DNA from: Escherichia coli
GTDB lineage: Bacteria; Pseudomonadota; Gammaproteobacteria; Enterobacterales; Enterobacteriaceae
NCBI RefSeq assembly: GCF_003019035.1
Contig: NZ_CP027447.1
Length of the DNA: 64,000 nucleotides
Direction: 5' to 3' (one strand)
The notes under the pieces: generated by a model
Told to the model about the DNA's origin: nothing
Seen by the model: the letters and a program-made list of their open reading frames with translations, nothing else
Databases searched by the model: none
Shown here: positions 3,046-40,277 of the stretch, in pieces
Layout: each line of letters opens with the position of its first letter
Numbering within the stretch: the first letter of the stretch is position 1
Translations under genes and position numbers: made by a program

Positions 3046-3078
3046 CATCGCCGCGGCATTTCAATATCAGAAAAAGAA

Positions 3079-3651: not shown

Positions 3652-3705
3652 GAAAAATATCCTCTTTGTTTTGTTAAAAATACATAGCTGGTATAGGTGG
3701 GAGTT

Positions 3706-4402: not shown

Positions 4403-4671
4403 GTGCTTTATTAAGCTTTCAAACTGGGATGCTGGAAAAACACCGCCATATTGTTGTAGCTAACGATGGGTATGACACAAAGGATGAATGGGAGTTGGCC
4501 ACAATTTTCAAAAAAACATATACACAAGGACGGGGACTTGATGCCACAAGTACAGGCGGGAGTCTGATCCCATCACCGACACTTCATTCACGAGGGAGTA
4601 TTGGTAACACTGGTGGTAGTGAAACTCGCCCCCGCAATATCGCATTTAACTATATCGTGAGGGCGGCTTAA
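4195..4671 (+). CDS. Silent alternative tail-fibre C-terminal cassette B
   Basis: 158 codons opening at TTG; conserved N-terminal block and terminal ETRPRNIAFNYIVRAA; distinct variable middle. Confidence 0.65.
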   Translation: MGEGSALPVGVPVPWPSATPPTGWLKCNGAAFSSEDYPKLAQAYPANKLPDLRGEFIRGWDDGRGIDAGRALLSFQTGMLEKHRHIVVANDGYDTKDEWELATIFKKTYTQGRGLDATSTGGSLIPSPTLHSRGSIGNTGGSETRPRNIAFNYIVRAA

Positions 4672-4677
4672 TTATAC

Positions 4678-5295: not shown

Positions 5296-5768
5296 TAAGT
5301 AGCCCTTACAATATAGTTAAACGCAATATTACGGGGGCGGTTTTCCGTTCCTGTATTCCCTCCGTTGGCACCTAATCTATAAACACCACGAGTGCCAATA
5401 GCACGTAGTGAAGATGGAACTTTTACACCTGACTCATCTGTTTTAACAATCCCGCCATCACCGTATGTAGCCAGTATACCAGGGTTTGTTCCTGCACGGG
5501 TGCTGTTTGCGGCAAGCCCTTCACCAGTCCATAACTCCATATAATGAATATGATCTATAACCGAATGTGATTGTGCATTAAGCAAGGAACGCCCTGAATC
5601 AATTCCCCGCCCGTCATCCCAGCCACGAATAAACTCGCCCCGTAAATCCGGTAATTTATTGGTGGGGTAAGCCTTTGCCAGTTTGGGGTACATTTCAGAA
5701 GAAAATGCTGCACCGTTACATTTCAGCCACCCCGTTGGCGGCGTGGCTGAAGGCCATGGAACGGGCAC
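5295..5768 (-). CDS. Alternative tail-fibre C-terminal cassette 3 (same orientation as the fibre gene, translationally coupled to tfa)
   Basis: 157 codons from a GTG; conserved block then unique variable region, ending ...RPRNIAFNYIVRAT. Confidence 0.65.
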   Translation of the reverse strand: MPVPWPSATPPTGWLKCNGAAFSSEMYPKLAKAYPTNKLPDLRGEFIRGWDDGRGIDSGRSLLNAQSHSVIDHIHYMELWTGEGLAANSTRAGTNPGILATYGDGGIVKTDESGVKVPSSLRAIGTRGVYRLGANGGNTGTENRPRNIAFNYIVRAT

Positions 5769-5815
5769 ACCAACGGGCAGCGCCGAGCCTTCCCCTAAAC
5801 CAACGTTTTCATGCG
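5588..5815 (-). repeat. Repeat copy 3 with candidate crossover site
   Basis: Minus-strand GAAAACG-TT-GGTTTAGGGGAA (plus-strand core 5802-5803) directly after the stop of cassette 2. Confidence 0.7.
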
Positions 5816-6147
5816 GCTCTTACGATGTAATTGAATGCAACGTTGCGGGGGCGTGTTTCTGCTGTGCCGACAATACTGGTACTCAGTCCTGTCGCTGTTC
5901 GTTTGTTATTTTTATTCCCTTCGATAAGACAGTTGTAATCGTCATTACCAATTAACGAGTTGGTGGCATCAATACCGTCCGGGGACAAGGCATTAGTTGT
6001 GGAACTTAAAGTCAGCATCTCGTCTGAACTTGGAAGATTTTTTAATGGGGTCTCATTACGTGAAATACCCGCATAAAAAAAGGACTCATGCCTGTGCGCT
6101 TCAAAAGAGTCATCCTGAAGACTTAGCAAGGCACGCCCAGCATCCAA
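5809..6147 (-). CDS. Alternative tail-fibre C-terminal cassette 2 (variable part; conserved block lies upstream at ~6135..6357)
   Basis: Track ORF opens at TTG within ...WDDGRGLDAGRALLSLQDD...; ends ETRPRNVAFNYIVRAA. Confidence 0.6.
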   Translation of the reverse strand: MDAGRALLSLQDDSFEAHRHESFFYAGISRNETPLKNLPSSDEMLTLSSTTNALSPDGIDATNSLIGNDDYNCLIEGNKNNKRTATGLSTSIVGTAETRPRNVAFNYIVRAA

Positions 6148-6358
6148 GCCACGTCCATCATCCCAGCCACGGATAAATTCACCCCGTAGATCCGGTAATT
6201 TGTTCGCGGGGTAAGCCTGTGCCAGTTTGGGGTAATCTTCAGAAGAAAATGCTGCGCCGTTGCATTTCAGCCAGCCCGTTGGTGGAGTGGCTGAGGGCCA
6301 CGGAACAGGTACACCAACGGGCAGTGCAGAGCCTTCCCCAAACCAACGTTTCTATGCT
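6135..6358 (-). repeat. Repeat copy 2 with candidate crossover site
   Basis: Minus-strand AGAAACG-TT-GGTTTGGGGAAGG (plus-strand core 6345-6346) abutting the stop of the expressed fibre gene. Confidence 0.7.
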
Positions 6359-7317
6359 GCTCTCACAATGTAGTTAAAGGCGATGTTGCGTGGACGAGTT
6401 ACATTAAAAAAGGACCCACTTAAAGCAGCTTTGGCACGACCAGCGACGTTACCCAGAATTGCATACCATAAATAATCACTCCTGTAATTCGTTGAAAATG
6501 TTTTATCGCCACCGTAATCAATACTATTTCCGTTACTCATATATGAAATATCAACTGCGGCATCATTGTCATCTCTACCACCAACCAAAGTACCTTTCTG
6601 CCACCCAAGCAACTGGCGACCAGGATCAATCCCGCGCCCGTCATCCCAGCCACGGATAAATTCACCCCGTAAATCCGGTAATTTATTGGTGGGGTAAGCT
6701 TTTGCCAGTTTGGGATACATTTCAGAAGAAAATGCTGCACCGTTACATTTCAGCCAGCCCGTTGGTGGTGTTGCTGAGGGCCACGGAACAGGCACACCAA
6801 CGGGCAGCGCAGAGCCTTCCCCCAAACCAAGGTTTTTGACAAACAGCGCAGGATCAGGAATATCTGCGCCGTTCTGGTCTTTAGCCAGCTTTTCCGCCAG
6901 CTTGTTCAGTACCGTAGTCGCAAAGTTTGGATCATTACCGAGAGCGTCAGCCAGCTCTTTAAGCGTATCCAGTGTCTCAGGGGCGCTGCCTGCAAGCGCC
7001 GCAAGTGCTTTGGCCACAAACTCCGTTGTCGCCAGCTTTTTGCTGTTATCGCCATTTGCAGGTGTAGGTGCTGTTGGTGTGCCGGTGAATGTCGGACTGG
7101 CTTTCTGTGCGTACTGGGTATGCGGGTCTGCTGCCGCGATGTGTTTCGCAAGGTCAGCCCCGCCTTTTTCAACCTGTTGCTTCAGGTACAGCGTGCGGCT
7201 GGCCAGTTGTTTACCCTGACGGTTAGAAATTCCGTCAGGTCCGCCCAGAACGGGGTCAGAGACCTCAATCTGGTAGATGCCGTCTTCCCACTGCGGGGTT
7301 TCGGGTAGATTTGCCAT
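6352..7317 (-). CDS. Tail fibre protein (constant N-terminal part fused to currently expressed variable C-terminus 1)
   Basis: 321 aa; N-terminal fibre region (TTEFV motif), tail-collar block from residue ~164, ends VTRPRNIAFNYIVRAA; position matches Mu S. Confidence 0.85.
   Translation of the reverse strand: MANLPETPQWEDGIYQIEVSDPVLGGPDGISNRQGKQLASRTLYLKQQVEKGGADLAKHIAAADPHTQYAQKASPTFTGTPTAPTPANGDNSKKLATTEFVAKALAALAGSAPETLDTLKELADALGNDPNFATTVLNKLAEKLAKDQNGADIPDPALFVKNLGLGEGSALPVGVPVPWPSATPPTGWLKCNGAAFSSEMYPKLAKAYPTNKLPDLRGEFIRGWDDGRGIDPGRQLLGWQKGTLVGGRDDNDAAVDISYMSNGNSIDYGGDKTFSTNYRSDYLWYAILGNVAGRAKAALSGSFFNVTRPRNIAFNYIVRAA
6612..6843 (-). repeat. Repeat copy 1, inside the expressed fibre gene, with the crossover site joining constant and variable parts
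   Basis: Sense-strand GTCAAAAACC-TT-GGTTTGGGGGAAGG (plus-strand core 6829-6830), a near-palindrome AAACCAAGGTTT resembling hix. Confidence 0.7.
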
Positions 7318-7319
7318 AA

Positions 7320-7898
7320 TTAACTGCTCCCGTGGTTGTAACTACCGTTATAACGGGTAGTACTGTTGTATCGAATGGCGACAGACTGATATTCCAGACT
7401 TGCCAGATGACAGCGAGCCGGAGCAAAGGCAGCAAGCGTCTGACGTAACAGCGCCGCCTGATCGTTAGTGATGGGTTGTTGAAGGATGACGCGATAGACT
7501 GCCCAGGCTTGTGCATCACCATGGACGAAAAGCCCGTTGTACGTGTGTCTGCCGTCATAGCCAATCTGCCCCGTACCTTCAATCAGATCCACTTCGCCGA
7601 AGCCAAAACGGCGGATAATTTCCCGGATTGACCACGGTGTTCCTTTATAGCGGTGTAGCTCGATAGCGGATTTGATAAGCATGCGGCGCACATCGTCCGA
7701 TTCCGCCAGTTCCCAGCCATCGCCGAACAGCGAGAACTGCTCGCCAAGCCATGGCAGCGCGGAACTGTCGACAATATCGACGAGACCGACCATCAGTACG
7801 CTCAGGTCGATGTTATCCAGCCGTCCGGCCAGTCTTCCCAGCGTTCTGAGACTGATATCACCCTCAAGCGGTGGCGGGAGTTGTAGCACCTCAGCCAT
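7320..7898 (-). CDS. Baseplate/tail protein (P2 gpI / Mu gp48-like)
   Basis: 192 aa; position immediately upstream of the fibre gene and resemblance to P2 gpI-type proteins. Confidence 0.6.
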   Translation of the reverse strand: MAEVLQLPPPLEGDISLRTLGRLAGRLDNIDLSVLMVGLVDIVDSSALPWLGEQFSLFGDGWELAESDDVRRMLIKSAIELHRYKGTPWSIREIIRRFGFGEVDLIEGTGQIGYDGRHTYNGLFVHGDAQAWAVYRVILQQPITNDQAALLRQTLAAFAPARCHLASLEYQSVAIRYNSTTRYNGSYNHGSS

Positions 7899-7976
7899 CG
7901 GACACCCCGGTCATGTTAAGAGTGATCGCCGTACAGTTTGCCCATTCGTTTTCTGCCACCACCCTCAGTGCCGGTG

Positions 7977-8993
7977 TCACCAGTTCGACCGGTACACCCC
8001 GGAAACGGACAACACGCTGATAATCTGGCTGGGAACAATATCGCGCCCCAGCGTGGCGGTACGGGATGCCACCCAGTTCTGTATGGCGCTGTTAGCGTTG
8101 TCCTTTACCAACCTTGCATCCTGATCACGATAGATCGTAATCCTGGCTTCAATGGTGTAATCCACCTGAACAGGTGTTTTAGCCCGCACGGTATCAGTGA
8201 GTGGTCTGACTTTTTCGTCAGAACAGAAACTCTCTACCAGAGTGAGGATACTGCTGTCCGGCAGACCAGTGCTGAGCAGCGGATACAGCTCGACAGTGCC
8301 GGGAGCGGGAGAAAGAACAGCAACGTCGACAATGCCGGGATGCGCCCCCATAGCATGAAAACGGTATGCACCACGGCTTCCGGCATTGGTGAATGACTCC
8401 GGGGCCAGCCTGATACGCTCCCGGAGTCGGTCATCGTCTTCCTGCTCTGAACCGCCAGAGCTGGCCGTCAGATTGGTCACCAGCAGGTCAATGTTATCAA
8501 TCTCATCGAGTAACTGACTGACCTGCGCCGGTTGCCAGCCGTTGCCAGCGGTACCCGGCTCGGTACAGGTGGCCGTGACATTGACCAGCAGCAATCCGGC
8601 CTTCAGCACCACATCTGTATCGGTGGCAAAAATAATACTGTCGGAAGCGCTGACGCGGGTGCCTGCCGGGATCAGCACATCAATGGCCAGTGCCTCATCC
8701 ACAGAGAACTGAAGTGTGGTGGTGGCAGGCTGCGCAGCAAGGCGGTATACACCGACCAGTTCACCGAGGTAATCAATCATCGGCTCCCGGGAAAAGGCGA
8801 CCAGATTCAGCTTCGCCGCCTCCTGTACCGCCACCCTGACCAGCATTTCGCGATAGGCCCACAGGTCTATCAGCAGACGTTCTGCCTGTGCCGGGTACAA
8901 CGTTTTGCCGGTATCCGCTTCATACTTCGCAATCATTTCTGCCGTGATTTTATCGGCATCGCGTTCAATAAAATCGGGTTCTGTCAGCGCCAT
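7977..8993 (-). CDS. Baseplate protein J-like (Mu gp47-like)
   Basis: 338 aa; gene order and size match baseplate J. Confidence 0.65.
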   Translation of the reverse strand: MALTEPDFIERDADKITAEMIAKYEADTGKTLYPAQAERLLIDLWAYREMLVRVAVQEAAKLNLVAFSREPMIDYLGELVGVYRLAAQPATTTLQFSVDEALAIDVLIPAGTRVSASDSIIFATDTDVVLKAGLLLVNVTATCTEPGTAGNGWQPAQVSQLLDEIDNIDLLVTNLTASSGGSEQEDDDRLRERIRLAPESFTNAGSRGAYRFHAMGAHPGIVDVAVLSPAPGTVELYPLLSTGLPDSSILTLVESFCSDEKVRPLTDTVRAKTPVQVDYTIEARITIYRDQDARLVKDNANSAIQNWVASRTATLGRDIVPSQIISVLSVSGVYRSNW

Positions 8994-9331
8994 AGCAGTT
9001 CCTGAGTACGGGGTTGTCCGTCTGAGCCTTTCCAGCTCACCCGGAGCGTAAGATGTTCGCCGTCGACGGCGGGTTTAACCGACATAAGCTGGCAGCGGGG
9101 TTCCCAGCGCCTGATGGCATCGACGGATTCGCGAACCACATGCGGAATGGCCCGGTCGACAGGCCAGTCGATATAAAGGTGCAGATTGCTGCCGAACTCC
9201 GGGCGATGCGGGTCGCTGCCGCGGGGAGTCCGCAGGATGATCTGGATGGACTGCCGGATATCATCCAGCCCCCGGACGATTTCGCCGGGAGCCTGCAGAG
9301 CTGGTTGCCAGAATACTGAGGTCGTTTTCAT
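8984..9331 (-). CDS. Baseplate wedge protein W/gp25-like (Mu gp46-like)
   Basis: 115 aa; size and position typical. Confidence 0.6.
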   Translation of the reverse strand: MKTTSVFWQPALQAPGEIVRGLDDIRQSIQIILRTPRGSDPHRPEFGSNLHLYIDWPVDRAIPHVVRESVDAIRRWEPRCQLMSVKPAVDGEHLTLRVSWKGSDGQPRTQELLWR

Positions 9332-9387
9332 GGAGGCAGTATTGCCCCCGGGAAGTAAGCACCGATATTAAAGGCGTTTAAGAAGGT

Positions 9388-9915
9388 TCAATGGGAATGG
9401 TGATTAGAGTTCTGACCATCTGCAAATATGTTACCCGTTGCATGGGCGCTTCCGTTGATTTCCAGATCACCATTGAGTGTCGCGGGGCCGTTGATCGTGG
9501 TAACTCCCGTGAGGTCGAGGTTTTTCCCTTTGAGAGAGATATCAGCGGCAACCTCCACCACGATACGCTCAATACCTCCTCTGACCGTCAGCGTATGGGT
9601 CGCGCGGTTATAACTGAACTCCGCGCCATCAGCGTATTTCGTACCCCGGACGTTTTTATCTCTGAACGGCGGTTTATCGACGTCTGAGTACACCGCGCCC
9701 AGAATAACACCATCCTCGCCGTTGGCATCGAGCAGCACCTCAACCTGCTCCCCCACGTCAGGGAGCCAGTAATCCTTGTTATCCTGGGTATTGCGCTGCA
9801 GCACGTTAAGCCAGTTTGTGCGCAGATTATCGCATTCAGGCAGACGAACGCGGGCCTGAACCCTGTCGGCATCCACGGCACTGACCGTACCGACCTGACG
9901 GGTGACACCAGTCAT
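9388..9915 (-). CDS. Baseplate assembly/spike protein V-like (Mu gp45-like)
   Basis: 175 aa; position between hub and W genes. Confidence 0.6.
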   Translation of the reverse strand: MTGVTRQVGTVSAVDADRVQARVRLPECDNLRTNWLNVLQRNTQDNKDYWLPDVGEQVEVLLDANGEDGVILGAVYSDVDKPPFRDKNVRGTKYADGAEFSYNRATHTLTVRGGIERIVVEVAADISLKGKNLDLTGVTTINGPATLNGDLEINGSAHATGNIFADGQNSNHHSH

Positions 9916-11066
9916 TTTTTCTTCTCCTTAATCACCGTCGATGTACTGCCATCCGGGTGATAAACCGTGAGTTTCTGAGTTTTTTGTTTTTTCCCTCTTG
10001 TGACTGGCCCCCGTGCCACTTCCAGCTCTGTGGTGTAGCCGCTGTTACGCTCAAACGCATGGCGGGCAGTGGTTATGAGCCATGGCCCGGATAACTGCCC
10101 AAAGCCCACCAGTTCAATTTTGTTGCCTGCTGTCAGTTGAGGCGTTCCCGTCAGCGTCAGGGAGCCGTTCTGCTGGTATTCGTTATGTCTGGCCAGTGCT
10201 GAATCCGCTTTAATCCGGGCACTGTCCGGGTCGCTGACGCGACTGTTAACTTTAAGTGAGTCAGCGCTGGTAACCTTACCACCTTTGAGCTTTTTGTCGC
10301 TTTCACGGGTACCACCATCAGCTTCGTAGACGATCAGTTTTTTACTGCTGCTTTTCTGGTGTTTTACCTTTGCAGATTTATAGACCCGGTTGATGGTGTC
10401 ACGCAGGGAAAAGCGGGCCACATCCTGCGGTTTTAACTGCCTGACCGGCTCCTGACTGCGCAGTGTGGCCAGATGAGAAAAAATCAGCTGGTCACTGACC
10501 ACTTTCACTGCATAACCATACTCGCTGGCCAGCCGGCGCAGAAAACCCACGTCGGTTTCAGCATACTGGGTCACCCGGTCGATTCTGATGGACTCAATGC
10601 TGCCCACCAGTTTCAGCCGGTGCTTTCTGGCAATCCGCCCCGCAACAGCTGCCAGCGTGGTGTTCTCAAAACCACGGCTGGATTTAGTCCGCAGAGCACT
10701 GTTAACCGAGGTGGCCACCCCACGGATAGCGACAACGGACGCGGGCGAACTCACTTCGATCTCGTCTATTGAGAATGTACCGCAGGACAGCAGTTTCTCG
10801 CCCTGATAACCCATTTTCAGCGTCAGCGTGTCACCCTTGCCCGGATACCACTTATCCAGCCAGCGGCCATCGGTGTCGTCCAGCTCCACCTCAATGGTAT
10901 CGGACTCATTTTTGATGTTATCGCTCCAGACCACACGGGTGACATAAGGCGCGATATCAGAGGTGATGTTTTTCTGCAGATACCACAGAGTGAATACCGG
11001 CGTCAGCACATCGCTGACGCCGGTTAACGCTGATGTGGCTTGCGCAGTACTGTTTATCTCAGCCAT
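9912..11066 (-). CDS. Baseplate hub protein (P2 gpD / Mu gp44-like)
   Basis: 384 aa, size and position of late control D / Mu P. Confidence 0.6.
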   Translation of the reverse strand: MAEINSTAQATSALTGVSDVLTPVFTLWYLQKNITSDIAPYVTRVVWSDNIKNESDTIEVELDDTDGRWLDKWYPGKGDTLTLKMGYQGEKLLSCGTFSIDEIEVSSPASVVAIRGVATSVNSALRTKSSRGFENTTLAAVAGRIARKHRLKLVGSIESIRIDRVTQYAETDVGFLRRLASEYGYAVKVVSDQLIFSHLATLRSQEPVRQLKPQDVARFSLRDTINRVYKSAKVKHQKSSSKKLIVYEADGGTRESDKKLKGGKVTSADSLKVNSRVSDPDSARIKADSALARHNEYQQNGSLTLTGTPQLTAGNKIELVGFGQLSGPWLITTARHAFERNSGYTTELEVARGPVTRGKKQKTQKLTVYHPDGSTSTVIKEKKK

Positions 11067-11269
11067 GGGGCAATATCCTCTTCTGTACGGGCATCTTCAG
11101 CCTCAATAACCGGGATCAGTAACAACAACCCGGAGGGCAGCACCGGCGTAATGGCCACGTGCGGATTGGCTGCAATAATCCGGGGATAGCCCAGCGGGTC
11201 ACCGTAGTACTGCCATGCCAGCGAATCCCAGCGCTCTCCGTCACGGGTAATATGTTCAAGAAACATCAC
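11054..11269 (-). CDS. Tail protein X-like
   Basis: 71 aa small protein between the U-like and hub genes. Confidence 0.45.
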   Translation of the reverse strand: MMFLEHITRDGERWDSLAWQYYGDPLGYPRIIAANPHVAITPVLPSGLLLLIPVIEAEDARTEEDIAPWLR

Positions 11270-12150
11270 ACACTCCTCGTCAGTATTCTGGCGGCCATTG
11301 CACTTAATCCCGGAGACATGCGGTTGAATGCTGTGCCGGCGGCGTTAAGCTGCCCGGAAACGGTATCCAGAGCACCTGCAATATTTCTTTTGTCCACACC
11401 ACTCAGCGCCGACTGCGCCTGCTGTACATACGTGGCTGCCTCACTGGCTGTTCTGGCCAGACTGATGGCATCGGGCATGGATTCAGAGAGTGCATTAAAC
11501 GCCGGAACACTTTTCCCCAGAGCTCCGGATATATTACCCAGTCCGCTCATCAGTCCCGGCACACGGGTCAGCGCGACAACGGGGTTACCCTTCATTTTCT
11601 GCGCCACCCGAACGGCACTGATAGTGGTCTGGAGTACAGACTGCGCCTGTTTCGCATAGTTGACGCCGTTACGGACGAACTGCGCCACCCCGGAAGGCGA
11701 TGGAACAGCACCAGATACGGCCCCGGCACCGGGAACCTGCCTGCGTATTGCCGGCGGTTGCAGAGGATTTTTCGGGTCACCGGTGTATTCCCGGAGAGAC
11801 ACGGTGGCACTGACAGCCAGCACGTTACCGGTGCTGTCTGTCTGCTCGCTGGTTGCGGTCACATCGGTAATCACGAACCAGCCGCGATAGTCACCGTTGC
11901 CGAAGACCAGCGCCAGTGCCTGATGGGCCTTCATGGCTGTTCGCACTCTCGCCAGCTCCACGTCGGGCACACAATAATGCTGATGGAAGACCAGGCTTAT
12001 CTGGATTTCGTCCAGCCTGTCGCCGACGAACTGCAGGCCGGGTTTACCCTCGATGCGGGCATGCTCCGCATAATCGACGCCAAACGTGGCCTCGAAGCCG
12101 TCCCAGTAGGTAATCAGTTCAAACTCAATATCACCCAGTACGGCAAACAT
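11266..12150 (-). CDS. Tail protein U-like / DNA circularisation protein N-like
   Basis: 294 aa; N-terminal ~130 aa resembles P2 gpU; Gly/Ala/Ser-rich C-terminal extension; directly downstream of the tape measure gene. Confidence 0.55.
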   Translation of the reverse strand: MFAVLGDIEFELITYWDGFEATFGVDYAEHARIEGKPGLQFVGDRLDEIQISLVFHQHYCVPDVELARVRTAMKAHQALALVFGNGDYRGWFVITDVTATSEQTDSTGNVLAVSATVSLREYTGDPKNPLQPPAIRRQVPGAGAVSGAVPSPSGVAQFVRNGVNYAKQAQSVLQTTISAVRVAQKMKGNPVVALTRVPGLMSGLGNISGALGKSVPAFNALSESMPDAISLARTASEAATYVQQAQSALSGVDKRNIAGALDTVSGQLNAAGTAFNRMSPGLSAMAARILTRSV

Positions 12151-29557: not shown

Positions 29558-30322
29558 ATGAAAATGCAGTCATTACCCATCGTTCCATGGATTGGTGGCA
29601 AACGCCGCCTTGCAAAACACATTCTGCCGCTGTTTCCGGCGCATGAATGTTATGTGGAGCCGTTTTGTGGGGCAGCAGCGCTCTATTTTCTTAAGACACC
29701 CGGCAAGATCGAAGTCATTAATGATATCAACGGTGAACTGGTGAATCTGTACCGGGTGGTAAAGCATCACCTGGAAGAATTTGTCCACCAGTTCAAATGG
29801 GCGCTGGTCAGCCGTCAGATCTACAAGTGGCTGCAGATCACCCCGGAAGAAACACTGACGGATATCCAGCGTGCAGCACGGTTCTACTACCTCCAGAAGC
29901 AGGCGTTTGGCGGCAAGGTAGCAGAACACAGCTTCGGTACCTCCACCACATCCCCGCCACGCTTCAACCTGCTGCGTATTGAAGAAGAACTGTCAGCGGC
30001 ACACCTGCGACTTTCCAGAACAGTCATAGAACACATGGACTGGCAACAGTGCATTGAGCGCTATGATCGTCCGCACACGCTGTTCTACTGTGATCCGCCG
30101 TATCTGGGTACGGAAGGCTATGGTGTGGATTTTCCTGAAGGGAACTACTCGCGGCTGGCAGAGCTGGCCCGGTGCATCAGAGGAAAAATGATAATTTCGG
30201 TGAACGACATCCCGCAGATGCGCGAGGTGTTCACTGGACTGAACATACAGACAGTGAATATCAACTACAGTCTGGCGGGGAAACCCACGCCGCGCCGTGA
30301 ACTGATAATCTGCAACTTCTGA
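29558..30322 (+). CDS. DNA adenine methyltransferase, Dam-like
   Basis: 254 aa with the N-terminal AdoMet-binding region (FCGAAALYF) and the catalytic DPPY motif (YCDPPYLG). Confidence 0.85.
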   Translation: MKMQSLPIVPWIGGKRRLAKHILPLFPAHECYVEPFCGAAALYFLKTPGKIEVINDINGELVNLYRVVKHHLEEFVHQFKWALVSRQIYKWLQITPEETLTDIQRAARFYYLQKQAFGGKVAEHSFGTSTTSPPRFNLLRIEEELSAAHLRLSRTVIEHMDWQQCIERYDRPHTLFYCDPPYLGTEGYGVDFPEGNYSRLAELARCIRGKMIISVNDIPQMREVFTGLNIQTVNINYSLAGKPTPRRELIICNF

Positions 30323-30438: not shown

Positions 30439-30816
30439 TCAGCCTGTAAATTTACTTGGTTTGGGTTGAGTATAGAATCGCCCAACCTCAAGAAATGAGC
30501 GTCGTTGTTCCGGAGTCATTTCATCAAATGCGTCCATTAATTTTTGTTTTTCTGGTGACATTTTTGGGACAACATTGGTCATTACATCCCCTCTCTGTCC
30601 TGTAACAACGTAAAGCACGTCAAGCCCTAAAGTAGCCCAAATTGCCAAAGCATCTGCTCCGGGAGCGGATTCATCCTTTTCCCACCGCAATTGGCTTTTA
30701 TAGGATGCCCCCACCAATTCAGCAAACTCAGACTGACTAAATCCTAGGCGGTTTCGTTCTTCTTTTAATCGTGAGCCAAGTGACATTTTTGTCCAATACC
30801 TATTTACATGTCCCAT
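30439..30816 (-). CDS. Phage repressor, XRE-family HTH
   Basis: 125 aa with HTH LGFSQSEFAELVGASYKSQLRWEKDE; divergent from the early operon. Confidence 0.7.
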   Translation of the reverse strand: MGHVNRYWTKMSLGSRLKEERNRLGFSQSEFAELVGASYKSQLRWEKDESAPGADALAIWATLGLDVLYVVTGQRGDVMTNVVPKMSPEKQKLMDAFDEMTPEQRRSFLEVGRFYTQPKPSKFTG

Positions 30817-30878
30817 TTTTGGGATAATAATCTAACATATATAGAGCAAACATCATTGCGTTAATAAAGGAGGCAACA

Positions 30879-32353: not shown

Positions 32354-34135
32354 ATGAATGCTGCCCTGACTGAACGACTGGTTTATGTCGCCCGCGCGGC
32401 ACGTGACGCGGGGCATGGTAAACGCGGTGCAATATACGACGCTGCCTGTGCTGAACTTGGCATGTCCCGCGCCACTCTGCTGCGCAGGCTGAAGGAGGTC
32501 TCTGTGACTGATAAACGCAAAAAACGCGCCGATGCCGGGCGCAGCGCTCTGACCCGCGACGAAGCCGCGCTGATATCTGCCACACTGCGTGAGGCCACCC
32601 GCAAGAACGGTAAGCGTCTCTATTCCATCGCAGATGCAGTGGAAACCCTGCGGGCTAACGGCTTTATCTCCGCAGGCAGAACAGATGAAACCACCGGTGA
32701 GTTTTTCCCGTTGTCCGAAGATGCCATCAGTCGTGCCCTGCGTAACTATGGCCTGCACCCGGAACAACTGGATGCCCCTGCACCGCATACCGAAGTGGCC
32801 AGTCTGCATCCCAATCATGTCTGGCAGATTGACGCCTCACTCTGCACGCTTTACTACCTGAGCAATGGACATAAAGGGCTGCAGGTGATGGACAGCGCGA
32901 AGTTCTACAAGAACAAGCCCGCTAACCTTGCCCGTATCGCCAGTGACCGCGTGTGGAGTTACGAGATTACCGACCATGCCAGCGGCTGGATTTACGTTGA
33001 GTATGTGACGGGCGCGGAATCCGGTGAGAACCTGTGTTCTGTGCTTATCAACGCCATGCAGGAGCGCGGTGGCGCAGACGTGCTGCACGGCGTGCCGAAA
33101 ATACTCTATCTCGACCCTGGCTCGGCAAACACCGCGGGTATGACGAAAAACATGTGCCGCTCACTGGGCATCGACCTGATAGCGCACAGGCCGCATAACG
33201 CCCGCGCCACCGGACAGGTGGAAAAGGCGCGTGACATTATCGAACGCAAGCTGGAGCCGGGTCTGAAGTTCCGGCCGGTTCACAGTCTGGAAGAACTCAA
33301 CGCGCTGGCCGCGAAATGGCGCAGCCACTTTAACGCCACGGCTGTTCACAGCCGCCACGGTAAAACCCGCACGGATATCTGGCTGAAGATTACTGCTGAG
33401 CAGCTGAAAAAAGCGCCTTCCGTTGAAGTATGCCGTGAACTGGCTGTGGCGACACCAGAACTCCGCAAAGTCACGCCAAAACTTCGTGTCTCGTTCCGGG
33501 GCACTGAATTTGACGTATCAACGGTACCGGGCGTACTGGTTGGTGAAAAACTGATGATTACCCGTAACCCATGGCGCAGCGATGTGGCACAGGTGGTTCT
33601 GACCGGTGAGGACGGCCACGAGACGTTCTTCCTGGTCGAAGAGGTCAGAAAGAACGAGTTTGGCTTTGCTGAAGGCGCGGCGGTATTTGGCGAAAGTTAC
33701 AAAGCCCTGCCGGAAACCCCGGCACAGATGGCGGCAAAAGAAACCGAAGCGCTGGTTACCGGTACAGACAACGCCGCAGATGCAGCCGCCGCACGCAAGG
33801 CGAAGGCGCTGCCGTTCGGCGGGCGGCTTGACCCGTATAAACATATCGACGACACCACACTTCCGGCCTATATGCCGAAGCGTGGTCAGGCCTCTGACGT
33901 ACGCGGGCCGCGCACTGAACAACGTCCCATGACTCATGTGGAGGCCGCGAAAGCCCTGCGCGATAAGTTCAGCGCCGACGGCCTTACCTGGACGCCGGAA
34001 CATTACCGCCAGTTAACGGCACAGTACCCGGACGGCGTACCGGAAGCTGCACTGGATGAAGTCATGGCCACGCTGACCACGCCGGCCCGCAGCAGCGTTA
34101 TCAGCAGCGTTATCAGCATTGTTAACGGCAACTGA
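32354..34135 (+). CDS. DDE transposase (integrase catalytic core; functional analogue of Mu A)
   Basis: 593 aa; candidate catalytic region HVWQIDAS...YLDPGSANTAG; followed by the transposition ATPase gene. Confidence 0.8.
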   Translation: MNAALTERLVYVARAARDAGHGKRGAIYDAACAELGMSRATLLRRLKEVSVTDKRKKRADAGRSALTRDEAALISATLREATRKNGKRLYSIADAVETLRANGFISAGRTDETTGEFFPLSEDAISRALRNYGLHPEQLDAPAPHTEVASLHPNHVWQIDASLCTLYYLSNGHKGLQVMDSAKFYKNKPANLARIASDRVWSYEITDHASGWIYVEYVTGAESGENLCSVLINAMQERGGADVLHGVPKILYLDPGSANTAGMTKNMCRSLGIDLIAHRPHNARATGQVEKARDIIERKLEPGLKFRPVHSLEELNALAAKWRSHFNATAVHSRHGKTRTDIWLKITAEQLKKAPSVEVCRELAVATPELRKVTPKLRVSFRGTEFDVSTVPGVLVGEKLMITRNPWRSDVAQVVLTGEDGHETFFLVEEVRKNEFGFAEGAAVFGESYKALPETPAQMAAKETEALVTGTDNAADAAAARKAKALPFGGRLDPYKHIDDTTLPAYMPKRGQASDVRGPRTEQRPMTHVEAAKALRDKFSADGLTWTPEHYRQLTAQYPDGVPEAALDEVMATLTTPARSSVISSVISIVNGN

Positions 34136-34145
34136 GGAGGAAAAC

Positions 34146-35312
34146 ATGCTGGTACTGAAGCAGCAACTGAAAGAGGCCCGTATCCCACAGGCGGTGGTGG
34201 CGAGAGCTGTCGATGTTTCTGAGGCCACGCTGGCCCAGATTGTGAATCATAACGCGTGGCCCCGCACCCGCCCCGGAGAAGTGCGCCGGCGTCTTGCGTC
34301 CTGGCTGGAAAGTCAGGGGATTGATACAACGAAGAGTTTTGATGCTGTACAGGGCGCGGCCACGCCCCGTACAGCGGGTACCACAGATAAAACGAGCCTC
34401 AGTGAGGAAGAGAATATGTTACTCAAAAAACAGGTGTTATTTCCAGCAACCAAAAAAGCGTTTGGTCTTTTCCGTGACCCGTTCGCCGACGAAGCCATGC
34501 AGGGTTCTGATGATGTGTTCACCACCCCGGACATTCGCTACGTGCGTGAGGCGCTGTACCAGACAGCCCGTCATGGTGGGTTTATGGCCGTCATCGGTGA
34601 GTCCGGTGCGGGTAAATCCACGCTGCGCCGCGACCTGACTGAACGTATCAACCGCGAGAATGCGCCGGTAATTGTTATCGAGCCATACATCATCGCTATG
34701 GAAGACAACGATGTGAAAGGGAAAACCCTGAAGGCAGCAGCTATTGCCGAAGCCATTATCAGTACCATCGCACCACTGGAAAGCATCAGACGCAGTCAGG
34801 ACGCCCGCTTTCGCCAGTTGCATCGCGTCCTGAAAGACAGCAGCCAGGCGGGGTTCAGCCACGTTCTGGTGATTGAGGAGGCTCACAGTCTGCCCATTCC
34901 GACACTGAAACACCTCAAACGCTTTTTTGAGCTGGAGTCCGGTTTCAAAAAACTGCTGTCCATCGTGCTGATTGGTCAGCCGGAACTGGCGACAAAACTG
35001 TCTGAACGCAATATGGAAGTCCGTGAAGTCGTTCAGCGCTGTGAGGTGGTCGAACTTCTGCCTCTGGACAATAACCTTGAAGAGTTTCTGACGTTCAAAC
35101 TGCAACGGGCCGGTAAACAACTGACGGACATTATGGACGCCAGTGCAGTGGATGCCATACGTGCCCGCCTGAGCAATCCGGGAAGTCATCGTAAAAATAT
35201 GGTCAGCCTGCTGTATCCGCTGGCCGTCAGTAACCTGGTGATAGCCGCCATGAATCTGGCCGCTGAAATCGGGGTTCCACAGGTCAACGCTGACGTTGTC
35301 AAAGGGGTTTAA
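34146..35312 (+). CDS. AAA+ transposition ATPase (Mu B / TniB-like)
   Basis: Walker A GESGAGKST and Walker B VLVIEEAH; ATG at 34146 with GAGGAGG RBS; the track ORF opens at an upstream TTG. Confidence 0.75.
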   Translation: MLVLKQQLKEARIPQAVVARAVDVSEATLAQIVNHNAWPRTRPGEVRRRLASWLESQGIDTTKSFDAVQGAATPRTAGTTDKTSLSEEENMLLKKQVLFPATKKAFGLFRDPFADEAMQGSDDVFTTPDIRYVREALYQTARHGGFMAVIGESGAGKSTLRRDLTERINRENAPVIVIEPYIIAMEDNDVKGKTLKAAAIAEAIISTIAPLESIRRSQDARFRQLHRVLKDSSQAGFSHVLVIEEAHSLPIPTLKHLKRFFELESGFKKLLSIVLIGQPELATKLSERNMEVREVVQRCEVVELLPLDNNLEEFLTFKLQRAGKQLTDIMDASAVDAIRARLSNPGSHRKNMVSLLYPLAVSNLVIAAMNLAAEIGVPQVNADVVKGV

Positions 35313-35314
35313 TA

Positions 35315-35584
35315 ATGAAATCCACCACAGGTATCAACCAGCAAATCAGCAAAGTGCAGTCAGCCATTATGGCGCTTAAGGCGACGAACACGGATGTACA
35401 AAGCATCACCATCAGGGGTAACAAACCTGTCATCCGCGTTTCCCGGAGTGCGCATTGCATGCGCATGCTTGAGCAGGGAAAGGCCTGTTATCTGTATACC
35501 GGACATGACCACAGGGGATATTTCCGTCAGGGCGTTTTCGAACTGCACGGCTGTCGCGTCGTGTGGCCGGAATCTTTGTGGTAA
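35315..35584 (+). CDS. Hypothetical early protein
   Basis: 89-aa ORF directly after the ATPase gene. Confidence 0.4.
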   Translation: MKSTTGINQQISKVQSAIMALKATNTDVQSITIRGNKPVIRVSRSAHCMRMLEQGKACYLYTGHDHRGYFRQGVFELHGCRVVWPESLW

Positions 35585-35611
35585 TCAGCACAACTGGAGA
35601 AATCATAAAAT

Positions 35612-36142
35612 ATGGCAAAAAGTACAAAAGGGGCAAAACGTATCAAGTCCGCAGCGGCACTCTGGGTACCAGGGACACGCGAAGAGGTCATTGAGGGCAT
35701 CAGACTGCTCGGTGACGCACAACGTGAACTGGTCAGGGCTGAAACAGAAATGAATGACGCCATTGGCGATATCACCGCACGTTATGCCCCGCTCACCGAG
35801 AGCCTGAAAAAACGCATGGCCGAACTGCAGTCCGGTATTCAGACATGGTGTGAGGCACACCGTGATGAACTGACCGGCAACGGGAAGGTGAAGTTCGCTA
35901 ACCTCACCACCGGCGAGGTGCAGTGGCGAAACCGTCCGCCATCAGTCAGTATCCGTGGAGCGGATAATGTTATTGAACTACTGAGACGTCTGGGGCTTGA
36001 GCGCTTTATTCGTGTAAAAGAGGAAATAAATAAAGATGCCATTCTGAATGAAAAAGAGGCCGTGAAAAATATTCCCGGTATTACCATAAAAAGTGATATT
36101 GAGGATTTTTCAATAATTCCTTTTGAGCAGGATGTGCAGTAA
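35612..36142 (+). CDS. Gam-like host-nuclease inhibitor / DNA-end binding protein
   Basis: 176 aa, size and sequence character of Mu Gam; RBS GGAGA. Confidence 0.6.
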   Translation: MAKSTKGAKRIKSAAALWVPGTREEVIEGIRLLGDAQRELVRAETEMNDAIGDITARYAPLTESLKKRMAELQSGIQTWCEAHRDELTGNGKVKFANLTTGEVQWRNRPPSVSIRGADNVIELLRRLGLERFIRVKEEINKDAILNEKEAVKNIPGITIKSDIEDFSIIPFEQDVQ

Positions 36143-36239
36143 ACACACCACGTTAATTATTTAATAAAAATATTTTCTTTTTTATTCCGGCGTCAGCGCC
36201 GTGGGCTTCTGCACGCCGGAAACAGAGGAGAATTAAATT

Positions 36240-36434
36240 ATGATATTTAAATGTATTCAGTGCGAGAGGGATATAACAGCCCTGCGTTTTCACAGCGCCA
36301 TCGCCGTGATGTCCGGTAAATACCACATCCCTGCGGTACGCGTCACCCTGGTCTGCCCGTACTGCAGCCAGCATTTTTCGGCGGACGTGCCCGTCATGGA
36401 ATTCTCCCGCCCTGACAGGGAGGACGCGCAATGA
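36240..36434 (+). CDS. Small zinc-ribbon protein
   Basis: 64 aa with CIQC...CPYC; RBS GAGGAG. Confidence 0.45.
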   Translation: MIFKCIQCERDITALRFHSAIAVMSGKYHIPAVRVTLVCPYCSQHFSADVPVMEFSRPDREDAQ

Positions 36435-36703
36435 TTACCCCACAGGAAGCACGACAGCGCACCCGAACCCTTGTTGAACACTATGTCAACGAGTGTGAAT
36501 GCCGCGACCTCACCGATGTGAAGCACGTCCTGACGGCGCTAATCAGCATGGCCGCTCAGGCCATTGTGGCGACCAACGGAAAGGCGGCTGCCCTGCAGGT
36601 ACTGGTGAACACACTCACCCACACGGCAGAGCATGAGGTGCCGTACCGGATGGAAACCACTGCAGAAGGCGGCCTGCACATCACCGTCAGCCGGAAGCAC
36701 TGA
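36431..36703 (+). CDS. Hypothetical early protein
   Basis: 90 aa; ATGA overlap with the upstream gene. Confidence 0.4.
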   Translation: MITPQEARQRTRTLVEHYVNECECRDLTDVKHVLTALISMAAQAIVATNGKAAALQVLVNTLTHTAEHEVPYRMETTAEGGLHITVSRKH

Positions 36704-36712
36704 GGGCGCGGC

Positions 36713-37009
36713 ATGACACGAAACACCGAACTCACCCGCACCGCCCTCTACCGTCTGGCCCTGCACCGTTTCGGGCCGGACGCACAGGCCCTGAAACTGA
36801 CAGAAGAGGCCGCTGAACTGGCGGCCAGTGCTGCCCGCAATCTGAACGGACAGGGCAACGAAAGTGACCTCGCGGCAGAGCTGGCAGACGTGGAAATCAT
36901 GACAGAGCAATTGCGCCTTCAGGGGATGGACCGGCTGATTGACTTCCACAAACAGAAAAAACTGGAACGTCTGGCTGCACGACTGGGCGTGATTTACACG
37001 AACGAGTAA
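36713..37009 (+). CDS. MazG-like nucleotide pyrophosphohydrolase domain protein
   Basis: 98 aa with EExxE and ExxD motifs (LTEEAAELAA...ELADVEIM) typical of all-alpha MazG/HisE-type NTP pyrophosphatases. Confidence 0.5.
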   Translation: MTRNTELTRTALYRLALHRFGPDAQALKLTEEAAELAASAARNLNGQGNESDLAAELADVEIMTEQLRLQGMDRLIDFHKQKKLERLAARLGVIYTNE

Positions 37010-37023
37010 CCGGGAGGCATTCA

Positions 37024-37239
37024 ATGGCTGACATACTCAGGGAAATCACCGCATGGATACTGATTCTTACTGGCCTGGCGACATGCCTCAGTGCGGGGGC
37101 AGCCCTGGCTGCCCTGCTGATGCACATAACAACACAGTGGTTATGGGAAAAGCTTAAAGCAGCATACAGCCTGAAAGAGCTGTCCGACGCTGTCCGGGCA
37201 TGGAAACGGCAGAAAAATACCGGAGATACAGAACAATGA
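37024..37239 (+). CDS. Small membrane protein
   Basis: 71 aa with one hydrophobic helix; RBS GGGAGG. Confidence 0.4.
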   Translation: MADILREITAWILILTGLATCLSAGAALAALLMHITTQWLWEKLKAAYSLKELSDAVRAWKRQKNTGDTEQ

Positions 37240-37919
37240 CAGACCAGAATAAACACATTGAGAAACTGAAAAAGTTGCTGGCGCTGGCCGCATCCGGCAA
37301 CCCGCACGAGGCCGCTCTGGCACTGCGCCGAGCCCGTAAACTGATGGATGTTCACGGCATCACACATTCCGACATTGCTATGAGTGATATTGATGAAACC
37401 ATCAGTCATTACTGGCCGACAGGCAGTCTCCGTCCACCGCGCTACATGCTGGGCCTGATGAACATCATCCGCGAGGCATTTGGTGTTAACTCCATCATTC
37501 ACCCCGGCACGCATCCGTCTGTGGGGTTCTACGGTAACCGGGAACGAGCGGCACTGGCTGCGTACACCTGGGAAGTGCTGGTCCGCCAGCTGAAAAAGGC
37601 GCGTCAGCAGTATATCAGCGCACAGAACAAAAGAATAAAAAACGCCACCCGTACCAGCCGTGGAGACCAGTTTGCTGAAGGCTGGGTACTGGCCGTTATC
37701 AGTGAAATACAGTCCTTTGCCCTGACCGATGATGAGCGTGAACTGATGCAACAGTGGCTGGAACATAAATACCCGCAAACGCAAACCACCAGGGCGCGTA
37801 AACCGGGAAGAAGCCGCAATGGCGACGCCTCGCGCTATGCGGGGTTTCGTGAAGGGCAGAACGTCAGACTGCACCGCCCGGTCAGTGGGCAGGAACAACA
37901 GAAACTGGAGGCCAGATGA
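37236..37919 (+). CDS. Early protein with DUF2786-like N-terminal domain
   Basis: MTDQNKHIEKLKKLLALAASGNPHEAALALRRARKLM...; ATGA overlap with the upstream gene. Confidence 0.5.
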   Translation: MTDQNKHIEKLKKLLALAASGNPHEAALALRRARKLMDVHGITHSDIAMSDIDETISHYWPTGSLRPPRYMLGLMNIIREAFGVNSIIHPGTHPSVGFYGNRERAALAAYTWEVLVRQLKKARQQYISAQNKRIKNATRTSRGDQFAEGWVLAVISEIQSFALTDDERELMQQWLEHKYPQTQTTRARKPGRSRNGDASRYAGFREGQNVRLHRPVSGQEQQKLEAR

Positions 37920-38146
37920 TTACGCTATCAGGTAACAGCCGGAAATTAAAAGCCTGCCGAATATCTGCCAGATACCTTTTTGCCCGCGCCTTTTTTAAGA
38001 ACGTCAGGCCGGGGATCACAATTGGTGTTATTGCCGGACGCGAACAGGTTGAAAAATACATGTCAGGTGCATGGTGGGATAACGACCCTGTCATTGCTGC
38101 CCGTAATATTCATATCAGTTGGGGGGATATTCAGAATGACGGCTGA
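37916..38146 (+). CDS. Hypothetical protein
   Basis: 76-aa ORF, ATGA overlap with the upstream gene. Confidence 0.35.
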   Translation: MITLSGNSRKLKACRISARYLFARAFFKNVRPGITIGVIAGREQVEKYMSGAWWDNDPVIAARNIHISWGDIQNDG

Positions 38147-38351
38147 ATCTGTTGTATGTGCCCTGTTCTGGTATTGTTTTGTCGGTTGGTGTACTGCTGA
38201 ACTGCACCGCCGTTCAGGGTTTTATTCACGTTACAGTGGTGCCGGCTACTGGATTAGCTGGTCGGTGATGTTCCTGTGCTGGCCTGTGGCGCTTCCTTTA
38301 TATGTCGGTTATATCGGTGGCGCAGGTAAAAGGAGCAACGATGATGACTAA
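38136..38351 (+). CDS. Small membrane protein
   Basis: 71 aa from the ATG at 38136 after a G-rich RBS; two hydrophobic helices. Confidence 0.4.
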   Translation: MTAESVVCALFWYCFVGWCTAELHRRSGFYSRYSGAGYWISWSVMFLCWPVALPLYVGYIGGAGKRSNDDD

Positions 38352-38793
38352 ACAACGTCTTATCCAGCTCATTCATATTGCCCGTAATGAACTGGGTATG
38401 GATGAAGACACCTACCGCCAGATGTTACAGGGGCTGACCGGTAAAGCCTCAACCAAAGGAATGGATACCACACAACTAAACTGCGTGCTGGAATCCATGA
38501 AAAGGAAAGGCTTTCGCGTTAAGCCTGCCGGAAAAGCCAGCTCCGGTTTACCGCTGGATAACCATCCGCAGTCCAGGAAAATCCGTGCGCTATGGCTTGA
38601 AATGGCTGCTGCCGGCATTGTTCGTGACCGTTCAGAAAATGCATTAGCGCGGTGGATCAAGCGGGAAACGGGCATCAGCGCCCTGCGCTGGCTCAATACT
38701 GAACAGGCAAGCAGTGTTATTGAGAAACTGAAGAAGTGGCAGCACAGAGCTGCGGGAGTAAAACATGAGCGACCTGAATCAGTTTCGAAGTAA
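38341..38793 (+). CDS. GemA/gp16-like protein
   Basis: MMTKQRLIQLIHIARNELGMDEDTYRQMLQGLTGKAS... matches the GemA family pattern. Confidence 0.6.
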   Translation: MMTKQRLIQLIHIARNELGMDEDTYRQMLQGLTGKASTKGMDTTQLNCVLESMKRKGFRVKPAGKASSGLPLDNHPQSRKIRALWLEMAAAGIVRDRSENALARWIKRETGISALRWLNTEQASSVIEKLKKWQHRAAGVKHERPESVSK

Positions 38794-39163
38794 AGGGCCG
38801 GAACTCCTGGTGGAGCTGGCACAGCATACCTCTGAGACCGTTCGCGAGATTATTGATATTGAGCCCGCAATTGCCGACCAGATTGGTCAGGCCGTCGCGA
38901 ACCGAATGATGCAGGTCTGGGGCGGGCAAAACGTTTATTTCCCGATGGGCATGGTATGGAAGGTCAGTCAGCGCGACCGGGAAATCTTCAGGGAGTTTAA
39001 CGGACGCAACCACCACGAACTGGCCCGCAAGTTTGGTGTTTCGCTTCAGTGGGTCTACAGCGTGGTTAAGCGGGTCAGAAAAGAAGAACTGGATCGGATG
39101 CAGGGCAGGTTGTTTGATGAAGATCTGCCAGAGGAGACGAAAGACGTTAACAAATCCAGATAA
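38765..39163 (+). CDS. Mor/C-family transcription activator
   Basis: C-terminal GGQNVYFPMG...RDREIFREFNGRNHHELARKFGVSLQWVYSVVKR matches the Mor/C pattern (GGxxVYIPxG...FNGRN..EL...YGV...VY). Confidence 0.7.
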   Translation: MSDLNQFRSKGPELLVELAQHTSETVREIIDIEPAIADQIGQAVANRMMQVWGGQNVYFPMGMVWKVSQRDREIFREFNGRNHHELARKFGVSLQWVYSVVKRVRKEELDRMQGRLFDEDLPEETKDVNKSR

Positions 39164-39205: not shown

Positions 39206-39240
39206 AAAAGCACGGTAGACCCCTTACCGTGCTTTTTTTA
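39206..39240 (+). terminator. Rho-independent terminator after the Mor-like gene
   Basis: GCACGGTA-gacccct-TACCGTGC followed by a run of seven T. Confidence 0.7.
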
Positions 39241-39277: not shown

Positions 39278-39910
39278 ATGTTTGACGTTTCGTTGTTAAA
39301 TCTGCCATGGGCAACACTGGTGACCCTGACCAGTGGCTATATTGGGTATTTTATTGCGAATGTGGGACTGAAGGATCACCACAAGCCCATTGAGGTGACT
39401 TTTTCTTCGCTGATTTTTGGCCTGACAGCAATGATGGCTTACCAGGCTGTTATGTGGGCAGGTCTGAATGCCTGGCTGGCAACACCACCAGCACTTCTGT
39501 GTGCCGTTACATGCGGTGCGTGGTGGCGCAGGTACGGTCGCAAATGGATGTACAGATTACTGTGGAATAATGATATTTCATGGTCTGACGATACCAGCTC
39601 AGCATGGCAGGCAATGTTTGATCAAACAGGCTTCAGCGTTACCGAGGTCAGAGTGATTCTTCGCGATGGTTCCGGTATGATGTCACGGCTGCCAGGGAAC
39701 TTTGAAGAGTGGCCTAACGGTCCGTTTACCCTGGGGAATAAAGGCGATATGGTTCTTTACGTCACGCACAGCAGCCCTTCAGGCAGTAACGAATGGGAAG
39801 AGTATAAAGGCGTGGTTGATAAGTACTGGGGAGCTCTGGCAACCTATATTCCAGCAGATCAGATTGCCAGAGTGGAGATCAGGCGCGTTCGTGCAACGAA
39901 CGATGAATGA
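39278..39910 (+). CDS. Hypothetical membrane protein (3 predicted TM helices plus soluble C-terminal domain), terminal accessory gene
   Basis: 210 aa from the ATG at 39278 with RBS AGGGAG; follows a terminator; last gene before the prophage end. Confidence 0.55.
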   Translation: MFDVSLLNLPWATLVTLTSGYIGYFIANVGLKDHHKPIEVTFSSLIFGLTAMMAYQAVMWAGLNAWLATPPALLCAVTCGAWWRRYGRKWMYRLLWNNDISWSDDTSSAWQAMFDQTGFSVTEVRVILRDGSGMMSRLPGNFEEWPNGPFTLGNKGDMVLYVTHSSPSGSNEWEEYKGVVDKYWGALATYIPADQIARVEIRRVRATNDE

Positions 39911-40226: not shown

Positions 40227-40271
40227 TTATTTATCTCACGGATCCCCCTTCATTTATCTCATGTCTGATCA
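40227..40271. repeat. Left-end terminal inverted repeat with two putative transposase-binding motifs
   Basis: Reverse complement reads TGATCAGACATGAGATAAATG...CCGTGAGATAAAT, mirroring the right end. Confidence 0.55.
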
Positions 40272-40277
40272 AATCAA
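40272..40277. repeat. Target-site duplication, high-coordinate copy, (A)ATCAA
   Basis: AATCAA immediately after the CA terminus at 40271; identical to 2995..3000. Confidence 0.6.

Follow-up and report, generated by a model that had tools for sequence, protein, structure and literature searches.

The DNA considered here is a 64,000-nucleotide (nt) stretch of Escherichia coli (GCF_003019035.1, NZ_CP027447.1; hereafter the window), and the subject is a block of small genes at window positions 35315-38351. These are early accessory genes of an intact BcepMu-like transposable prophage. A preliminary description of this DNA had counted ten small genes in the block; nine open reading frames (ORFs) are found, here named O1 to O9 with Gam as the second, and a tenth is reached only by including the GemA gene, which extends across the right edge. 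RefSeq annotation of near-identical copies gives the same nine ORFs. Together with a non-coding element, they are arranged as follows:

35315-35584, + strand: O1, 89 amino acids (aa); RefSeq 'HI_1482 family protein'; phrog_2041 (3.1e-36)
35612-36142, + strand: Gam, 176 aa; homologue of the Mu-type (Ku-like) DNA-end-binding inhibitors of host nucleases
36171-36225, + strand: putative boundary element, non-coding; comprises a U-rich tract (36171-36185) and a GC-rich hairpin (36186-36220), followed by AAACAG ahead of the ribosome-binding site of O3
36240-36434, + strand: O3, 64-aa zinc ribbon; phrog_3401; C5-x2-C8 and C39-P-x-C42
36431-36703, + strand: O4, 90 aa; phrog_3691; predicted mostly helical from its sequence
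36713-37009, + strand: O5, 98 aa; probable MazG/HisE-like all-alpha nucleoside-triphosphate pyrophosphohydrolase
37024-37239, + strand: O6, 71 aa; predicted single-pass membrane protein; hydropathy peak of 2.0 at residues 8-33
37236-37919, + strand: O7, 227 aa; DUF2786 helical hairpin, DUF7168 alpha/beta core, and basic disordered tail
37916-38146, + strand: O8, 76 aa; phrog_3681; narrow and weakly constrained
38136-38351, + strand: O9, 71 aa; phrog_6436; probable two-segment membrane protein

The block lies between a transposition ATPase gene and the GemA and Mor genes, as the preliminary description had placed it and as the ORF list, RefSeq, and Pfam bear out. All genes are co-directional and are separated by gaps of no more than 27 nt or overlap, except for the 97 nt after Gam. 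The tight coupling through several ATGA overlaps that had been described is likewise present, with three such overlaps (O3/O4, O6/O7, and O7/O8) and further overlaps of 11 nt between O8 and O9 and 8 nt between O9 and GemA. A Shine-Dalgarno-like motif stands ahead of all nine ORFs. Polymorphism among about 30 copies of the block gave ratios of non-synonymous to synonymous change (pN/pS) of 0.05 for Gam, 0.09 for O7, and 0.10 for O3; values for O5, O1, and O9 were 0.16, 0.17, and 0.20, and those for O4, O6, and O8 were 0.54, 0.75 (from few changes), and 0.84, respectively. On sequence grounds, the ORFs of the block are more than chance reading frames.

Comparison of 91 related loci (80 viral loci with O7 relatives, together with genomic and phage loci; homologues were collected by tblastn and clustering) revealed a shared scaffold of the form A-B-O1-(Gam or DUF3164)-O3-[O4 or a possibly related 67-aa ORF]-[pyrophosphatase]-[O6]-O7-[O8]-O9-GemA-Mor, followed by a cargo slot. 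By this gene order, the block is a conserved scaffold and not a freely shuffled island. O1 was detected in 64 of the 91 loci and is an anchor that always precedes the slot for Gam or DUF3164. Of 5426 complete E. coli genomes, 639 contain a match to the block; in 618 of these, the match covers 80% or more of it, and nearly all matches have 95-99% identity.

The Gam-like protein of the preliminary description proved to be a true member of the family. It matches PF07352 at 5.6e-41 (140.4 bits, against a cut-off of 28.3), with residues 23-169 covering profile positions 1-148 of 149, and phrog_491 at 9.7e-74. Its identity is 63% with Mu Gam and 68% with JBD24 Gam, and it also matches the solved structure 2p2u in the PDB ('Gam, putative'; 8.8e-8). 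Homology thus carries the family assignment, and binding of DNA ends and blocking of RecBCD would be expected of the product. Mu Gam attaches to DNA ends and prevents the loading of RecBCD, a finding that has been extended to gp13 of the Pseudomonas Mu-like phage JBD30 (PMC12407980). RecBCD blocking by GamMu-type proteins also licenses attack by Gabija, and a GemA homologue does likewise (preprint, PMC12407980). Gam is the only gene of the block that is a known counter-defence factor. Among the 91 loci (L005-L095), the same slot holds Gam alone in 43 and DUF3164 alone in 38, and in none were the two found together. Gam-type and DUF3164-type loci are both present in each O7-identity class below 90% identity, and the swap has therefore occurred several times. 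No relation of DUF3164 to Gam was detectable by profile comparison or by fold, using the predicted structure of DUF3164. The mutual exclusivity of the two genes is a modest addition of this analysis.

The 97-nt gap between Gam and O3 contains the non-coding element, which has a fold z-score of -4.4. By eye, it is about 90% or more identical in Salmonella-type relatives in which O3 is only 33-58% identical and DUF3164 lies upstream, and in one locus (L055) it follows DUF3164 and is succeeded by a different gene. Its conservation greatly exceeds that of the genes on either side. A homologous element is present in phage Mu between gam and gp11, the latter being unrelated to O3. In the alignment, 95% of cells were paired and three pairs were changed on both sides; this supports the pairing, though not strongly, as one of the compared sequences had itself supplied the structure. 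The element occurs once in the window and is confined to this phage group; an Rfam search with it gave no match. A role as an intrinsic terminator was considered and rejected, as the U run lies 5′ of the stem and the A run 3′ of it, both strands were considered, and the element is absent from the terminator scan. More speculatively, it could act as a boundary element at the RNA level. The conserved hairpin after Gam, shared with Mu, is a feature that the preliminary description had overlooked and is a further modest addition.

O5 matches phrog_2245 ('NTP pyrophosphohydrolase') at 7.9e-34, over profile positions 113-211 of 218 only. Its twin acidic motif, EExxE...ExxD, is well kept among 22 homologues, where E31, E32, E56, and D59 are invariant and E35 nearly so. 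The match to PRA-PH falls below the curated cut-off (15.7 bits vs 21.3); across the family, weak matches to PRA-PH were obtained for 17 of the 22 members (best 4e-4) and to MazG for four (best 0.019). Some RefSeq records of identical proteins carry the name 'nucleoside triphosphate pyrophosphohydrolase family'. Searches of PDB sequences with the single protein and with a profile gave nothing meaningful, the profile search returning only 5ie9 at an E-value of 0.72. From its motif and its profile matches, O5 probably belongs to the MazG-like pyrophosphohydrolases. Its close relatives are confined to the enterobacterial phage group of this prophage. Atd1, a phage MazG-like (p)ppGpp pyrophosphatase, is reported to blunt TIR-based defence (bioRxiv 10.1101/2022.06.09.495361), and because O5 is also a phage MazG-like protein, it is by analogy a plausible candidate for counter-defence. 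Both are small phage-encoded proteins with a MazG-type catalytic domain and twin acidic motifs; however, the likeness is one of description, not of sequence comparison, and O5 differs in the narrow range of its relatives.

The interval that holds O5 has varied contents. Across the loci, this pyrophosphatase slot contains O5, a PF04447 dATP/dGTP pyrophosphohydrolase (5e-44), or both, and in BcepMu the same interval holds gp06, an unrelated 'pyrophosphatase', so that three sequence-unrelated enzymes fill the slot. Neither BLASTP nor hhalign found any similarity between O5 and gp06 or between O5 and the PF04447 cassette; the statement that the same enzyme class occupies the same slot therefore rests on separate annotations. 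In some E. coli copies, an extra 127-aa ORF (phrog_18739) is present between O5 and O6 (VG38-53E1, at L014 3197-3580, and the loci L033 and L034), and O6 itself is optional, with no tblastn match in L013, L036, L037, and L039-L041. The extra ORF marks the junction of O5 and O6 as an insertion hot spot.

The most widely conserved of the uncharacterized ORFs is O7, for which a DUF2786-like assignment had been made and which does match DUF2786 (PF10979; 43 bits, cut-off 23.9; residues 8-44), with DUF7168 in addition (PF23771; 92.2 bits, cut-off 25.5; residues 46-189), in the usual domain order. The AF2 model (predicted local distance difference test, pLDDT, of 85.7) has an N-terminal helical hairpin, a beta-alpha-beta-beta-alpha core, more helices, and a disordered basic tail. 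Comparison of the model with solved structures gave no convincing fold match, and searches of PDB sequences, single and by profile, found nothing meaningful. A type I KH domain was considered for the core and set aside, as there is one helix before the strand pair and the helix-GXXG-helix element has no counterpart; the modeled core may resemble the KH fold weakly, as a resemblance and not as membership. Homologues of O7 also occur in the Mu-like Pseudomonas phages B3 and JBD24 and in Mu-like phages of Ralstonia and Curvibacter. In the lytic Xanthomonas phage Mallos, O7 adjoins genes for a nucleotide pyrophosphohydrolase and a Cas4-like exonuclease as well as polymerase and helicase genes.

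The remaining ORFs are smaller families. The 64-aa zinc ribbon that had been noted is O3, in which the two CxxC knuckles (CxxC...CPxC) are kept in all 29 distinct variants of its cluster; its matches to Pfam zinc fingers are only weak. O4 varies more than any other ORF of the block; its N-terminus is mosaic and has recombinant alleles, and about 12 representatives of it, down to 35% identity, were found in 1.84 billion proteins, with the conserved pattern MITPxEA...ATNGK...H. Its high diversity is largely the product of recombination between old alleles. Homologues of O8 are 75% identical in a few Salmonella-type loci and 47-50% identical among representatives. Two small membrane proteins had been proposed; O6, with its one strong transmembrane segment, fits this well, and O9 is only a probable case, with two weaker hydrophobic, aromatic-rich segments at about residues 5-22 and 40-62. 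O9 also exists as two alleles of about 39% identity, the alternative one being carried by the phage PhiKM and by most E. coli copies. No similarity was found between O1 and BcepMu gp07. Literature searches on DUF2786, DUF3164, the RefSeq accessions, and stem-loops of the Mu early region returned nothing relevant.

The prophage that contains the block spans window positions 3001-40271 (37.3 kb), and matches from other genomes break off at about 3000 and 40272 (BLAST break points). Its termini (2995-3006 and 40266-40277) read TGAT...ATCA, of the TG...CA form, and a 6-bp target duplication, AATCAA, stands on both flanks; the motifs CGTGAGATAAAT recur close to each end. It is inserted upstream of slyB/slyA. 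Other copies of the prophage interrupt host genes such as phoA and irp2, as fits a Mu-like element. The best phage match of the block is Escherichia phage PhiKM (Bcepmuvirus), at 97.7% identity. According to the RefSeq annotation of copies, the minus strand carries the late genes; the rightward early string begins beside a repressor gene on the minus strand and runs through a ner-like gene, a helix-turn-helix gene, a DUF3102 gene, the rve transposase, the ExeA-type ATPase, the block, GemA, and Mor. The features that frame the block are:

30439-30816, - strand: repressor, left of the ner-like gene
30803-30831, + strand: candidate early promoter, upstream of the ner-like gene; TTTACA-17-AATAAT, a consensus match only (10 of 12 positions)
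32354-34135, + strand: rve transposase, upstream of the ATPase
34119-35312, + strand: B-like transposition ATPase of ExeA/AAA_22 type, the left boundary; RefSeq 'ExeA family protein' in identical copies, AAA_22 Pfam marks in relatives
38344-38793, + strand: GemA homologue, the right boundary; PF06252 (1.3e-40)
38765-39163, + strand: Mor-family transcription activator (RefSeq annotation); 56% identical to BcepMu Mor
39206-39236, + strand: intrinsic-terminator-like hairpin, a 13-pair stem followed by a T run, the strongest on this strand; probable end of the early operon

Several other features of the prophage were observed outside this early string. At its left end (about 3000-8500) lie tail-fibre, tail-fibre assembly, and recombinase-family genes, an arrangement reminiscent of the invertible G segment of Mu with Gin. 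A variable slot of lower GC content to the left of the repressor holds an orphan D12-class DNA adenine methyltransferase (29558-30322; PF02086, 3.1e-29), which is possible anti-restriction or regulatory cargo; IAI39 holds different genes in this slot. Past the terminator that follows mor, the right-end cargo slot contains a 210-aa ORF (39278-39910; phrog_12870) with N-terminal hydrophobic segments, no Pfam match, and no PADLOC match, possibly an exclusion or defence moron. A homologue of it, 65% identical, directly follows Mor in a Salmonella relative (L011). In a Xenorhabdus relative (L012, 8999-9751), a gene with Tad2-like (PF11195) and DUF7823 domains lies about 1.3 kb beyond Mor, near or just outside the right end of that related prophage. 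This Tad2-like gene hints that anti-defence cargo may sit at the right end rather than in the block.

The block probably represents, in a BcepMu-like prophage, the counterpart of the semi-essential (SE) early region of Mu, that is, part of an early transcript that supplies a mixed support kit for transposition and host takeover. As the layout suggests, it would most likely form the distal portion of a single long early transcript, which would start near the repressor/ner-like switch, cover transposase A, ATPase B, the nine ORFs of the block, GemA, and Mor, and end at the terminator after mor. The products would then serve replicative transposition and takeover of the host in various ways. Gam, on the ends of linear phage DNA, would keep off RecBCD and other exonucleases, and O5 would be expected from its likely family to hydrolyse some nucleotide, whether non-canonical deoxynucleoside triphosphates, an alarmone, or a signal. 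The conserved anchors O7, O1, and O3 probably have nucleic acid, or the machinery of transposition and replication, as their target, as their conservation and neighbourhood suggest. More speculatively, the lineage-restricted O4, O6, O8, and O9, including the two membrane proteins, would be the best candidates for a kil-like block of division, exclusion, or counter-defence, and the hairpin after the Gam/DUF3164 slot could set the expression of the downstream half at the RNA level through processing, stability, or re-initiation of translation.

Roles in DNA transactions or takeover are favoured because of the conserved gene order, the strong constraint on O1, O3, O5, and O7, and the replication-module neighbours of O7. 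Some points weigh against this interpretation. The single-operon reading and the 'early' timing rest on the layout and on the analogy with Mu; the Pfam assignment of O5 fails the curated cut-offs; and the weak constraint on O4, O6, and O8 would also fit arms-race proteins. In addition, the equivalence to the SE region of Mu is positional rather than gene by gene, because only Gam, GemA, and Mor have Mu homologues: a tblastn search of Mu positions 1-12000 found Gam, with GemA and Mor outside the block, and no gene-by-gene homology to gp5-gp15.

The preliminary description had viewed the block as a candidate anti-defence arsenal. Part of that view stands, since Gam is a genuine counter-defence factor and O5 a plausible candidate; no positive evidence was obtained for the other ORFs, and a dedicated arsenal, in which most of the nine ORFs would each inhibit a specific host immune system, seems unlikely. 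Antagonism of RecBCD by Gam and the counteraction of TIR effectors by Atd1, together with the MazG-like character of O5, are in its favour, as are the narrow and fast-changing O4, O6, and O8 (pN/pS 0.54-0.84), the presence or absence of O6, the extra ORF in some copies, and the two alleles of O9. However, the gene order and most of the genes are shared throughout the lineage, which is not usual for anti-defence islands; strong purifying selection acts on O7, O1, O3, and O5, O7 is found in replication modules, and the diversity of O4 is mostly recombination of old alleles. No PADLOC model matched any of the nine ORFs or the right-end cargo ORF at E-values up to 0.1, PADLOC covering defence systems and not anti-defence proteins. 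By sequence, O5 and O7 have no relatives of solved structure, and the O7 model lacks a convincing fold match, structural screening having covered these two of the nine ORFs. Anti-restriction functions had also been attributed to the SE region of Mu, which is not known to encode any; mom, the gene through which Mu evades restriction, is expressed late and lies at the opposite genome end. A similarly doubtful possibility makes the block an arena of continuing conflict with host immunity, where Gam and the unrelated DUF3164 would be interchangeable end-protection cassettes, repeatedly swapped at the boundary hairpin to escape Gabija- or retron-type sensing of RecBCD blockade, and where O4, O6, O8, and the MazG-like O5 would be counter-defence proteins.

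At the other extreme, the ORFs could be purely accessories of replication, transposition, and regulation, such that, besides end protection by Gam, none targets the host. Conservation of the anchors beside A/B and GemA/Mor agrees with this, as do the polymerase, helicase, and Cas4-like exonuclease neighbours of O7 in Mallos, the presence of HU-like and SSB-like genes in the corresponding BcepMu interval, and the weak KH-like fold and basic tail of O7. Small membrane proteins such as O6 and O9 are nevertheless unlikely replication factors, the equivalent region of Mu kills the host, and optional, fast-changing ORFs are unlike core machinery; we regard this explanation as rather improbable. Even less credible is the proposal that O4, O6, and O8 are decaying or spurious reading frames. 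Their pN/pS values, the similar synonymous and non-synonymous counts of O8 in other frames, and the tiny size of the families (54 matches for O3, O4, O6, O8, and O9 together among 1.84 billion representative proteins) would be consistent with it. Against these stand a good Shine-Dalgarno motif and start coupling for each, conserved motifs kept in homologues at 35-75% identity, and intact ORFs in hundreds of genomes. Because diverged homologues retain conserved motifs, we treat O4, O6, and O8 as real, weakly constrained genes.

About 12% of complete E. coli genomes contain this prophage family, one member of which, PhiKM, has an entry in the phage sequence collection; the unassigned early genes are therefore common and probably accessible to experiment. 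Counter-defence or takeover factors among them, if any, would enlarge the small set known from transposable phages. The alternation of Gam and DUF3164 would offer a natural experiment in which protection of DNA ends is traded against being sensed.

Among known systems, the SE region of Mu offers the closest precedent for the reading of the block as an early support region. That region lies in a long early transcript, most of its roughly 14 ORFs have no assigned role, and it is noted for kil, gam, and the killing of the host; its deletion restores the viability of infected cells (PMC3325207). Both regions (kil to gemA in Mu) lie between the B ATPase and GemA/Mor, are co-directional, comprise many small ORFs with a Gam gene, and have the homologous hairpin element after gam. 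No homologue of kil was found in the block, and the transposition genes differ, being of BcepMu/B3 type here (a Tn552-like rve transposase and an ExeA-like ATPase) in contrast to MuA and MuB in Mu. BcepMu (gp02-gp07) and Pseudomonas phage B3 (ORF2-ORF10) share the backbone of DUF3102, transposase, ExeA-type ATPase, small ORFs, GemA, and Mor. B3 ORF5 is a homologue of O7 (34% identical), and the BcepMu pyrophosphatase gp06 occupies the same interval as that of the block. However, both phages carry DUF3164 in place of Gam, and BcepMu adds HU-like and SSB-like genes; O1, O3, O4, O6, O8, and O9 have no detectable homologues in BcepMu. PhiKM (PQ738613) and the IAI39/CE10 prophage have the same nine ORFs at 97.7-98.9% nucleotide identity over the block and are essentially the same phage, differing in the right-end cargo and in the cargo beyond the repressor on its left side. 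Overall, the early accessory region formed by the block is of the usual Mu type; Gam alone has a known function in it, and O5 has a probable enzymatic family.

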